The notes: generated from the letters alone by a model not told the origin. A stretch of 64,000 nt of DNA from Oscillospiraceae bacterium (GCA_015067675.1 SVMB01000001.1:65757-129756); one strand, 5' to 3'; counted from the first letter of the stretch, positions 10,696 through 57,610 are shown. Made by a program: numbers and translations.

Positions 10696-11582
10696 GATAG
10701 TTCCTCCTGTTGGGCGCGGTTTGCGCTGATGATGGCCTGATAGCTGTCCGATTCCGAAAGCGGCTGTGCCGTCAGGGCAAGAAGCATGGGAACGGGTCTT
10801 TCGTCGATGCATACCGCACAGCCTGAGTAGGTGAGTATCAGCCCGCGCCCCTGCACGGTACGGCAGGGTAGGAGCCCGAAGCCTGCGCTGAGCCCCGCAT
10901 CGCCGAGAGCGGTCAGGGTTTTCGTGGGCTCGGTACCTGCGCAATCGATGATGGAACGGATTGCGGGGGAAAAGAGCGCGCGTACGGCAGGCCATGATAC
11001 AATCGCCGCCTCACGTCCGGTGAGCAGATCACGCAGGCTGTGACCGGAGTCACGCAGAGCGGTGAGTGTGCAGTACCCGCTGCCGCAGCGGATGGTGAGC
11101 GGTACCGTGAGGGATTCGTCTGCCGTGAGAGAAAAGGCTGACAGCAGCCCCGACAAAAGATACAGCGACAGCGCAGACAGGATAAAGACCATCGCCGGAA
11201 TGTTTATGTATCCCACACCGTTTTGCATCTGCAGTCCGGAATTATGGTCCGGCGCGTACTGCAGGAAAGCGGTCATCAGCCCTGCGTACAGACAGGACAG
11301 TCCCCAGAACAGTGCGCACAGGATGCCGAGACGATGAAGGCTTTCGCAGCGAAAGGCGATCATGCACAAAAGCACGGCGCCTGCGGCTCTCATGAGCGGT
11401 ACAAACCACCCGGGAAGCGTCAGGAAGAAGCACAGGCAGGCAAAGAGCCCGCCGACGCATGCCGCCGCGGCAAGCCGGGTATGTTTGACCGGACAGCGTG
11501 CGATGTAGGCCGATGAGCGCAGCAGCAGCCAGTCAACACTTGCGTTGAGTAAAAACAGCACATCCAGATAGACCGTTGCCAT
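10692..11582 (-). CDS. spoIIGA: Sigma-E processing aspartic peptidase SpoIIGA
   Basis: 296 aa. Five N-terminal TM segments ([17 protein letters not shown]...) and a C-terminal domain with a DSG-type motif ([11 protein letters not shown]). It overlaps the sigE start by 4 nt (ATGA). Confidence 0.85.
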
Positions 11583-11622
11583 TGAGGTTTCCCCTTTGAC
11601 CGGGTGTTGTCGTGATAAGATG

Positions 11623-11655
11623 AGGATACCACGGGCGGGGTAAAAAGCTTGTCAA
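11623..11655 (-). promoter_or_regulatory. Putative spoIIG-type promoter with an over-long spacer
   Basis: Minus strand reads TTGACA-21 nt-TATCCT, about 35 nt upstream of the spoIIGA ATG. 0A-box-like heptamers are present: TTTGACA overlapping the -35 element, and TGTCGGA at 11682-11688. Confidence 0.3.
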
Positions 11656-11702
11656 AGCCGGCGGTGAGAGTTTGATAACCGTCCGACAGGAAAGGAACGC
11701 AT

Positions 11703-55657: not shown

Positions 55658-56158
55658 ATGGAATACAGCGTAGGCGACGTTTTGGACGGAAAGGTGACCG
55701 GTATCACCAAATTTGGCGCTTTTGTGAGCATTGGAGAGGGCAGATCCGGACTTGTACATATTTCGGAGATTGCCAATACCTTTGTGCGCGAGGTGCGCGA
55801 GCACCTGACGGAGGGACAGGAGGTTCGGGTCAAGATCATCGGCATCGATGAGGCGGGCCGTATCAACCTGTCTATTAAGAAAGCGCTTCCGCCTCCCGAA
55901 ACGGCTCAGAACGCTCCCCGGACGTATGCGCCCCGTGAGAATACCGAGCGCCGCGGCCCTGCGGAATACACGCCCAGGCCTCAGTCTGCGCGTTCCGGCG
56001 GCCCTAGAGAGTTTAATGGTGCTGCCTATACCCAGTCGGGTGACGCCGATTTTGAGGATAAGCTCAAGAACTTCATGCAGGATTCCAATTCCCGCATGGC
56101 AGACCTGAAGCTTTCCGACCGCAAGGGAAGCTCCCGCCGCGGCCGTCAGCGCGGCTGA
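55658..56158 (+). CDS. S1 RNA-binding domain protein (YabR-like) with an Arg/Pro-rich tail
   Basis: VGDVLDGKVTGITKFGAFVSIGEGRSGLVHISEIANTFV...GQEVRVKIIGIDEAGRINLSIK. The start is uncertain: ATG 55658 lies 14 nt after AGGAGG, and the track start is TTG 55616. Confidence 0.75.
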   Translation: MEYSVGDVLDGKVTGITKFGAFVSIGEGRSGLVHISEIANTFVREVREHLTEGQEVRVKIIGIDEAGRINLSIKKALPPPETAQNAPRTYAPRENTERRGPAEYTPRPQSARSGGPREFNGAAYTQSGDADFEDKLKNFMQDSNSRMADLKLSDRKGSSRRGRQRG

Positions 56159-56171
56159 TAAATTTATCATC

Positions 56172-56276
56172 AAAAAAAGAGACGCCCGGGGGAGAAATCT
56201 CCCGGGCGTCTTGAGTAAAGGGAATTGGGGATAAAAGATATGAACGGCTGCGCAGGACGCCGAAGCGTTCCTGCAG
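56172..56276 (-). ncRNA. Candidate small RNA (orphan transcription unit)
   Basis: Reading the minus strand: an extended -10 element TGcTATACT (56290-56282); a 5' hairpin GCAGGAACGC-UUCG-GCGUCCUGC (56274-56252); a ~40-nt unpaired region containing AUCCCCAAUUCCCUUU; then the terminator GACGCCCGGGAG-AUUU-CUCCCCCGGGCGUC followed by U7 (56178-56172). There is no ATG in this strand. Confidence 0.4.
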
Positions 56277-56372
56277 GTATGAGTATAGCATACACAACGC
56301 GCATAATGCGTCGAAGCCTGATGCCCAAAACAAACTCTTCAAAAAACGGATGGCACAAACAGCAAAAAACCA

Positions 56373-56401
56373 TTGCATAAGAGCCGGGTTTCTGTTAAAC
56401 T
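56373..56401 (+). promoter_or_regulatory. Putative sigma-A promoter of the GNAT gene
   Basis: TTGCAT-17 nt-TAAACT, 40 nt upstream of ATG 56441. Confidence 0.35.
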
Positions 56402-56440
56402 AAACAGAGTACACAGGATCGTCGGAAAGGATGAAGTGAC

Positions 56441-57610
56441 ATGGCAGCTGAACTTGTCCACCTCACGTCTGCGGATTACGAAGACGCGATGGATTTTATG
56501 GATCTGGTATTCTCACAGGCGCACAGACCCCATGACTTTGCAGATCTCATGCCCACGGCCTGTCGTCCGGAAGAGGAATATATGCGCCGCAATCTTGCCA
56601 TCAAGCGCGACGGTAAGATCCGGGCTCTGGTGCTCTGCTCTCCCTGCGAGGTCAGCGTTGCCGGCAATACCCTGAAGATGGCCGGAATCGGCAATGTGTC
56701 TACCCATAAGCGTGAGGGCGGTCAGGGCCTGATGAAGCAGCTGATGCATCAGGCGATTGCCGAAATGCAGGAAGACGGTATTGATTTTTCGGGGCTGGGC
56801 GGTCAGCGTCAGCGCTATCAGTACTACGGCTACGACCGCTGCGGCATGAAATATGCCTATTCCCTGACAGCACGCAATCTCAAGCATATCAATTATCCCG
56901 TGCCGGACTGGCATTTTGAACCCATTACGGCGGAGTCGGATGCATGGCTTGCGACGGCGAAGGCGCTTTATGAGCAGCAGCCGCTGCACTGCAGCCGCGG
57001 CGACGGAACTCTCGACGCGGTTTACCGCTACCTGACCTGCTGGAACATCGTTCCCTATGCCTGCCTCGATGCGGAGGGGAAGATGGTGGGATACATCTGC
57101 GTGACGGCGGACGGCACCTCCTGCTCCGAACTGATTGCCGACACCCCGGCGCACACGGTGGACATGCTGGTTGCCTGGACTGCGCTGAAAGGCGTCAGCC
57201 AGATATCGCTGGGGATTCATCCCTGGCAGACCGAGATCTGCAGACGTCTGGATCTCATCTGCGATAATATCTCGCTGCATCCCGATCACCAGTACCGCAT
57301 CTTTAACTGGGATCGGGTCGTGAAAGCCTTTATGGATCTGAAGGCTACTTACGTTTCGCTCATGGACGGCGAGCTGGTGCTTGAGATTGCGGAGTGGGGG
57401 AGACTCGCCATTGCGGTGAAGGACGGCAGGGCAAGCTGTGAAAAGACGGAACGTGCCGCCGATCTCAGCCTCACGGCGTTTGAGGCCAATCGCCTGGTCT
57501 TTGGCCCGAAGCCTGCCTATTATACCGCCGATCTCCCGGCAGAGAAAAATGCCATGATTACCAACTGGTTCCCGCTGCCGCTGAGCTGGTGGCATCAGGA
57601 CTGCGTATAA
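56441..57610 (+). CDS. Eis-like GNAT N-acetyltransferase (GNAT plus SCP2-like C-terminal domain)
   Basis: 389 aa. Acetyl-CoA loop region HKREGGQGLMKQLMHQAI. The overall length and domain order are typical of Eis/MbtK-like three-domain GNATs. Confidence 0.75.
   Translation: MAAELVHLTSADYEDAMDFMDLVFSQAHRPHDFADLMPTACRPEEEYMRRNLAIKRDGKIRALVLCSPCEVSVAGNTLKMAGIGNVSTHKREGGQGLMKQLMHQAIAEMQEDGIDFSGLGGQRQRYQYYGYDRCGMKYAYSLTARNLKHINYPVPDWHFEPITAESDAWLATAKALYEQQPLHCSRGDGTLDAVYRYLTCWNIVPYACLDAEGKMVGYICVTADGTSCSELIADTPAHTVDMLVAWTALKGVSQISLGIHPWQTEICRRLDLICDNISLHPDHQYRIFNWDRVVKAFMDLKATYVSLMDGELVLEIAEWGRLAIAVKDGRASCEKTERAADLSLTAFEANRLVFGPKPAYYTADLPAEKNAMITNWFPLPLSWWHQDCV

Follow-up and report, generated by a model that had tools for sequence, protein, structure and literature searches.

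The minus strand behind a yabR-like S1-domain protein gene of an Oscillospiraceae bacterium very probably carries the gene for a conserved non-coding RNA, as judged from its sequence and from that of its relatives. The gene lies in the window, which is the whole 64,000-nucleotide (nt) stretch of DNA that was analyzed, and its predicted product is a small RNA (sRNA) that makes up a new family of a known kind, with members in many sampled families of one clostridial order. An invariant single-stranded block, covarying hairpins, a promoter of its own, and a terminator are together the signature of a trans-acting sRNA. The best explanation as a whole, namely an sRNA gene whose product acts in trans against ribosome-binding sites (RBSs) and is regulated by Spo0A, is judged to be reasonably probable.

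Parts of the locus

The S1 gene is the last in a mazG-yabO-yabP-yabQ-divIC-yabR cluster. Past its TGA stop, the plus strand reads 13 nt, A7 (56172-56178), a g, and then a stem-loop at 56180-56211 (AGACGCCCGGGGGAGAAATCTCCCGGGCGTCT); beyond the stem it continues as TGAGTAAAGGG, without a U tract. Read on the minus strand, the stem leads into CUUUUUUU (U7), and since the U tract is found on this strand only, the hairpin is an intrinsic terminator in the minus orientation. Its helix consists of 11 GC-rich pairs and 2 inner pairs, and a simple consensus terminator scan missed it because the loop and the bulge exceed the limits of the scan. The parts of the locus are the following, with the basis for each given in parentheses.

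Minus strand, 56290 to 56172: predicted sRNA gene, with an extended -10, a 5' hairpin, an unpaired C-rich stretch, and a terminator
Minus strand, 56309 to 56315: Spo0A-box-like heptamer, TTCGACG on the sRNA strand and CGTCGAA on the plus strand (sequence; comparison with the relative L005)
Minus strand, 56282 to 56290, read 56290 to 56282: extended -10 element TGcTATACT (sequence; kept in L005)
Minus strand, 56251 to 56275: 5' hairpin of 10 bp with one bulged A and a UUCG loop at 56264-56261 (RNAfold)
Minus strand, 56212 to 56250, with the conserved core at 56244-56220: unpaired seed region CAGCCGUUCAUAUCUUUUAUCCCCAAUUCCCUUUACUCA, 39 nt (RNAfold, MFE and centroid)
Minus strand, 56172 to 56211: intrinsic terminator, with the stem-loop at 56211-56180 and U7 at 56178-56172 (sequence, RNAfold, covariation)
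Plus strand, 55658 to 56158: YabR-like S1-domain protein gene, 166 aa, the convergent neighbor (ORF list; Pfam S1 matches on homologues)

The original prediction had described this arrangement in outline: a hairpin past the S1 gene with its U tract on the minus strand only, an extended -10 element about 100 nt upstream on that strand, and between them a UUCG hairpin and some 40 unpaired nt. All of this is borne out. RNAfold of 56168-56282 on the minus strand gives the 5' hairpin (56275-56251), an unpaired stretch (56250-56212), and the terminator, with a fold energy of -40.5 kcal/mol (z = -5.25), and none of 200 dinucleotide shuffles was as stable. The 39 unpaired nt contain CAUAUCUUUUAUCCCCAAUUCCC, and the seed region holds both a CAU (anti-AUG) and the motifs CCCC and CCC (anti-SD). 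Transcription is predicted to start at about 56274-56278, and the predicted RNA would be about 105 nt long.

No good -35 lies at 17 nt from the -10 in the window promoter. An 11-nt palindrome (CGCATAATGCG, 56300-56310) is located between the Spo0A-box-like heptamer and the -10; it is not conserved in L005 and could be an operator or a chance match.

Open reading frames (ORFs) are present on both strands. The minus-strand unit has no ATG, as had been stated, and the two long minus-strand ORFs that overlap it, 56373 to 56170 (67 aa) and 56378 to 56073 (101 aa), are not conserved. The plus-strand ORF that had been pointed out does exist; it runs from an ATG at 56240 to a stop at 56380, begins MNGC..., and has an SD-like GGGG 8-9 nt before its ATG. 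The sRNA terminator hairpin begins 21 nt past the S1 stop codon, and in the window genome it is probably also the sole stop for transcription of the S1 gene.

Conservation and spread through the order

The window genome is a 73%-complete metagenome-assembled genome and represents the sole species of its genus among the genomes compared. A BLASTN search with the 301-nt intergenic region gave no match in 40 relatives, and a metagenome scan with a 23-mer gave none. The S1 protein was then used as an anchor, and the contigs of its closest homologues were compared. The family came to light because a shorter query and synteny were used, the 301-nt query alone being blind to it.

The two nearest comparisons are another strain of the same species (L004, GCA_017532755.1), which is nearly identical at the locus, and an ENA metagenome scaffold (L005), whose S1 protein is 72-74% identical to that of the window. 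In L005 the unit is kept past the S1 gene though the next gene differs, being thioredoxin-reductase-like in place of the GNAT gene of the window. The S1 gene there has a complete plus-strand terminator of its own (GAGCCGTtGCAG...CTGCcACGGCTCTTTTG), which is followed by an A-run and the second hairpin. The minus strand of L005 keeps TGgTATACTCATACC in the -10 region although the DNA upstream has diverged. Its 5' hairpin has a wholly different sequence with the pairing kept (CUGUGGGGAAGG-UACU(C)-CCUUCUCCgCACAG), and one of the pairs is a G-U on the minus strand that would be an A-C mismatch on the plus strand. A single base has changed in the 39-nt unpaired stretch, while bases of the terminator stem have changed with retention of pairing.

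Separate S1 terminators ahead of the unit are found not only in L005 but also in L006, L007, L050, and L053-L059. The hairpin is thus not simply the end of the S1 operon, which had been one way in which the original prediction could fail.

A shorter DNA query against 35 genomes of the window's family matched each of the three genomes of genus g13 over 22 identical nt, with a -10 box before the match, a terminator after it, and the S1 gene convergent. An exact 18-mer scan of species-representative genomes returned three true matches, all in g13, the other 29 being chance matches inside genes. Within the family, the unit is convergent with S1 in 14 of the 28 evaluable loci, representing eight genera (g1, g3, g4, g5, g8, g10, g13, and g14), and in those 14 it is always on the strand opposite S1.

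The pattern of change was studied in an alignment of 30 sequences (A4). The block YUCAUAUC(U)UUUAUCCC(C)(AC)AAYCC, whose core spans about 25 nt, hardly varies in 28 of the 30 homologues. Because it accommodates one indel of 1 nt and another of 2 nt, neither strand can be coding, and the original view that the product would be non-coding is in keeping with this, as it is with the poor conservation of the ORFs. The ORF on the opposite strand that starts at the conserved ATG is anywhere from 4 to about 50 codons long and in differing frames: 46 codons in the window, 14 in L005, and 4-5 in g3 and f30. In one relative (L144:1975-2184, minus strand), the public gene call is a 69-aa ORF laid over the sRNA locus. 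Some records probably list members of the family wrongly as hypothetical proteins.

The hairpins on either side of the block behave differently from it. In the terminator helix, 92.8% of cells are paired among the 30 homologues, compared to 59% in column shuffles and 36-49% with slid partners; double-sided changes occur in all ten pairs, and none of 500 shuffles was as good. The 5' hairpin varies by lineage in length and sequence and is nearly always present, with compensatory changes in five of its nine pairs among six sequences (five from f30 and one from f25). Near-consensus promoters of the form TTGACA/TTTACA-17-TGnTATNAT, scoring at least 10.5 of 13.5, are found on the sRNA strand in 21 of the 30 loci, and in the homologues the promoters precede the seed by 21-72 nt. 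Every homologue carries its U tract on the opposite strand to S1.

The conservation of the unit and of its CCCC/CCC motifs had been proposed as a check, and both sequence and structure prove to be conserved in relatives. With the -10, the start region, and the orientation of the terminator all kept, the comparison argues for an independent minus-strand transcription unit, as predicted; and since the unpaired stretch stays nearly invariant while the hairpins change with their pairing kept, the C-rich motifs would be the working part of the RNA, again as first proposed. A variation is seen in f25 (L092-L094, L101) and in the g3 loci L050, L053, and L065, where the 5' end of the RNA (GAUGA.../GUGAG...) is able to pair with the YUCAU at the start of the seed. 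There, the seed may be partly hidden for as long as the hairpin stays closed.

The family can be delimited by the conserved block with a Rho-independent terminator behind it on that strand, both of which the window has; by a sigma-A promoter of its own, located 20-75 nt upstream, and a 5' hairpin ahead of the seed, which the window and its homologues share; and by a predicted transcription into a discrete RNA of about 70-130 nt. Two covariance models were used to follow it. The first, R1, covers the seed and the terminator and was built from seven sequences with the window left out; the window scores 28.3 bits with it (E 7.5e-6). With the second, R2, the score is 53.8 bits (E 6.5e-10), the window being included in the R2 alignment.

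Among 151 genomes sampled from the order, R1 found full-length copies in six families, f1, f2, f7, f15, f25, and f30. They occur in 7/7 genomes of f25, 6/7 of f30, 4/7 of f7, and 4/7 of f15, and the unit is therefore also present in at least five families other than that of the window. There is one copy of the gene per genome. The S1 gene is convergent within about 130 nt in 10 of 21 loci inspected. Contexts away from S1 are seen in f15 and among the small f25 genomes, and the gene thus stands on its own and is no mere adjunct of yabR.

Relatives that carry the family have NCBI names such as Oscillospiraceae, Pseudoflavonifractor, and Evtepia. A diverged variant (UUCAUUCCAUUCUCCCGCGCACACCCC followed by a terminator) is found at the equivalent place in loci with S1 proteins named Pseudoflavonifractor sp. 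or "uncultured Eubacteriales." In 150 genomes from other orders of the class, R2 found nothing convincing; one class-level match of 29 bits (L138) was rejected, as it is without the CCCC motif.

Proposed mode of action and known RNA families

The seed is the exact complement of 5'-GGGGAUAAAGAUAUGA-3', that is, of a G-rich SD, an A-rich spacer, and an AUG; with the optional base included, the complement is 5'-GGGGAUAAA(A)GAUAUGA-3'. In the proposed mechanism, a sigma-A promoter would give rise to a stand-alone RNA of about 105 nt composed of a variable 5' hairpin, a single-stranded seed, and a variable Rho-independent terminator. This RNA would pair in trans with the SD and the start codon of target mRNAs, and ribosome binding would be blocked. 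Hfq, which is encoded in the window genome, may help the pairing. The csRNAs and the C-rich sRNAs of the RsaE/RoxS type are thought to work in this way, by blocking ribosome binding at the SD and the start codon. The complementarity of the seed to SD and AUG, together with the csRNA-like design, points to occlusion of translation-initiation regions (TIRs) in trans, and by analogy we lean toward anti-RBS base pairing as the way in which the RNA acts.

The searches for targets were crude, and their failure is counted as weak evidence. In the window's own genome, 73% complete, a k-mer and RNAduplex scan and a fuzzy search for the ideal TIR found no near-perfect complementary site. In five other genomes (15-mer, two mismatches) and in the 151 genomes (G-U allowed), only the sRNA gene itself matched perfectly, and the remaining TIR matches were not orthologous, with no recurring orthologous target. 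Recurring GGGGTGARGRTATGR sites were rejected as targets since they are generic RBSs of unrelated genes (ClpB-, MnmA-, BirA-, and TrkH-like), and so were the S1 gene and spo0A, whose TIRs are not convincingly complementary. In a reduced RNAduplex run, the seed bound the predicted TIRs of its own genome no better than shuffled seeds did. In a g3 genome that carries the sRNA (L117, G046:C4:90676-90690), the seed could form 16 uninterrupted pairs with the TIR of a Gfo/Idh/MocA-type oxidoreductase gene (GGGGATAAAGATATGG) of the same genome; this single anecdotal candidate has no counterpart at orthologues elsewhere.

The RNA does not belong to a family in Rfam. With Rfam 15 at gathering thresholds, there was no match at the locus's place in the 64-kb window or anywhere else in it, nor in eight relatives, and at E <= 0.1 there was none in eight more relatives. 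Sub-threshold matches at the locus (CC3552, His_leader, VrrA, and Clostridiales-2) were rejected, three of them having alignments driven mainly by the terminator hairpin; the Clostridiales-2 match is on the plus strand, with 18 bits against a threshold of 58.6. A search of the literature found no description of the RNA and no riboregulator described for the order.

The original prediction had likened the unit to RsaE/RoxS and had suggested an Rfam search that included the RsaE family. Membership in that family (RF01820) was rejected: RsaE has no gathering-level match in the window, is absent even at E <= 10 in 55900-56700, and has no match in 16 homologous loci. The likeness is one of design. 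Several C-rich motifs are exposed (AUCCCCAAUUCCCUU) inside the 39-nt unpaired stretch in both the MFE and the centroid structure, and the RsaE/RoxS RNAs of Bacillales also have unpaired CCCC and CCC motifs able to pair with a G-rich SD, are about 100 nt long, end in a terminator hairpin, and are conserved over a large taxon. The C-rich motifs of RsaE are found in hairpin loops and linkers, whereas here a single long linker carries both motifs and the anti-AUG. RsaE is known only from Bacillales, where ResD/SrrA and Rex control it, and RsaE/RoxS pairs with the SD regions of central-metabolism mRNAs.

A closer parallel in architecture can be drawn with the csRNAs of Streptococcus (CcnA-E), in which two stem-loops flank an unpaired, highly conserved region with an anti-SD and a CAU anti-start (PMC3091779). 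Here, too, the RNA is about 100 nt long, the unpaired anti-SD and CAU between two stem-loops are the most conserved part, the CAU sits 9-10 nt 5' of the CCCC, and the seed is complementary to GGGGAUAAAAGAUAUGA. Both have one strong promoter under a response regulator, which in the present case is putative and depends on the Spo0A reading, and both are presumed to block translation-initiation regions. They differ in sequence, without covariance-model similarity (no csRNA match at E <= 10), and in their hosts, which are Lactobacillales for the csRNAs and Clostridia for the RNA described here. The anti-SD is CCUCC in csRNAs and CCCC/CCC here. The csRNAs are five paralogues in pneumococcus, and their promoters carry the CiaR repeat TTTAAG; the present gene has one copy per genome and a putative Spo0A box instead. 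Membership in the csRNA family was rejected, as the 120 nt upstream lack a TTTAAG repeat and Rfam has no match.

Other sRNAs invite comparison at the level of regulation or of motif. SpoY and SpoX of Clostridioides difficile and SR1-kinA of B. subtilis are tied to sporulation initiation in Firmicutes (PMC10267692, PMC8501984). They would belong to the same regulatory layer as the present RNA if the reading of the Spo0A box is right. They have no sequence relation to it, and they act on spo0A or kinA mRNA, whereas here Spo0A would act upstream of the RNA and not as its target. The 6C RNA of Actinobacteria is likewise a widely conserved sRNA, whose C-rich unpaired motifs bind several mRNAs (PMC6486639); these motifs are located in two hairpin loops, the phylum is a different one, and there is no Rfam match.

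Because no target was found, a role in protein binding was retained as a rival to anti-RBS pairing. The invariant stretch would then be a binding or decoy site for a protein, for example the adjacent YabR, and the RNA would either titrate it or have it as a chaperone. In favor are the unusual constancy of the roughly 25-nt core among families that share only 40-55% identity in their S1 proteins, the frequent linkage of the RNA with yabR, and the failure of the seed to outdo shuffles against TIRs. However, the linkage is lost in f15 and f25, the crude target searches say little by failing, and the seed has the textbook anti-SD and anti-AUG of the csRNAs (PMC3091779), which together leave this explanation improbable. 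A cis-antisense or convergent device for the yabR operon is more doubtful still. Under it, the RNA would pair or collide with S1 read-through and set the 3' end or the stability of the mRNA. The sRNA would find its full complement in such read-through, many genera have kept the convergent arrangement, and the S1 gene of the window is without a terminator of its own, the hairpin 21 nt past its stop having no U tract on the plus side. Yet many relatives have a complete S1 terminator before that of the sRNA, the gene is also found away from S1, and selection acts on the single-stranded internal block and not on the overlap.

It is very unlikely that there is no sRNA at all and that the locus consists of a bidirectional S1-operon terminator, a chance -10, and/or a gene for a small protein (56240-56380 on the plus strand, or 56373-56170 on the minus strand, 67 aa). 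The promoter and the start region are conserved, and near-consensus in relatives; separate S1 terminators exist, with the U tract opposite S1 in every homologue. The 46-codon plus-strand ORF, translation of which would have told against the original prediction, shrinks to 14 codons in L005 and 4-5 in g3 and f30 and is in other frames elsewhere, and the indels in the conserved block exclude coding. The SD-like GGGG before the ATG at 56240, the open frames on both strands, and the gene caller's 69-aa ORF over the equivalent region in L144 are the points in favor of a protein.

Possible control by Spo0A and the meaning of the family

With a trans-acting sRNA as the preferred reading, its time of action can be considered. 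The consensus of the 0A box, TGTCGAA, is conserved in Clostridia and recognized by clostridial Spo0A, and its positions G2, C4, and G5 are contacted (PMC3485338). TTCGACA is its reverse complement. In a direct target of Spo0A, the box would be expected within about 100 bp of the promoter. The candidate box of the window, CGTCGAA, matches in six of seven positions and keeps G2, C4, and G5; it is separated from the -10 hexamer downstream by 22 nt, as is the perfect TTCGACA of L005. Nearly all family members have TTCGACA or a 6/7 variant upstream of the promoter, and TTCGACA is found there in two families, that of the window and f7. The strict TTCGACA, in the orientation of the sRNA and within 95 nt, was found in 5 of 10 genus-level lineages (L005, g3, g4, g14, and f7-g20), with about 0.016 strict boxes expected per 95-nt search; the binomial P is about 2.5e-7, with related lineages treated as independent, which overstates their independence.

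Two layouts are seen. In g3, g4, and f7, the box is 20 nt upstream of a good -35, and in the window, L005, and L049, it is exactly 22 nt upstream of the -10, with no normal -35 there. Families f30, f25, and f15 for the most part do without the boxes, which are thus not a feature of the RNA family as a whole.

The window also includes spoIIGA (about 10722-11576, minus strand), whose promoter region (11600-11700) reads TTGACA-21-TATCCT, with TGTCGGA about 20 nt further upstream. The spoIIG promoter of B. subtilis is the classic Spo0A-activated promoter and has a 22-bp spacer. The 21-nt spacer of the window's spoIIGA promoter is comparable to the layout of the sRNA gene, with its 22 nt between box and -10, and supports the Spo0A reading. 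The window genome has spo0A, as do 140 of the 151 genomes of the order, and the presence of Spo0A was set aside as a correlate, being nearly universal in the order and hence uninformative. In genome G000 (contig C149), a perfect TGTCGAA directly abuts the ATG of spo0A (GGAGGATATGTCGAAATG), which suggests that spo0A is autoregulated within its 5' UTR.

If the boxes are used as proposed, Spo0A~P would switch the sRNA on at the onset of sporulation. Control by Spo0A in the window's own lineage is a plausible reading of the promoter sequences that falls a little short of probable. A broader and speculative proposal, which we consider rather unlikely as it stands, is that the order-wide sRNA is the post-transcriptional arm of sporulation initiation in Oscillospiraceae-type gut Clostridia, induced by Spo0A~P, shutting vegetative RBSs, and perhaps having YabR as a chaperone. 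Were it true, proteins of the YabR type would gain a defined partner, and the order would gain its first conserved riboregulator.

The order includes many abundant commensals of the gut and the rumen. An sRNA that is kept as a single copy in at least six families of such bacteria, with its 25-nt seed almost unchanged, would probably have a central role in their regulation. The alignment A4 and the models R1 and R2 allow the RNA to be annotated in thousands of metagenome-assembled genomes and to be searched for in existing metatranscriptomes. The Spo0A boxes and the adjoining cluster of sporulation and division genes provide a testable idea of when the RNA may act, and the link with yabR provides another on the role of the S1-domain protein YabR.
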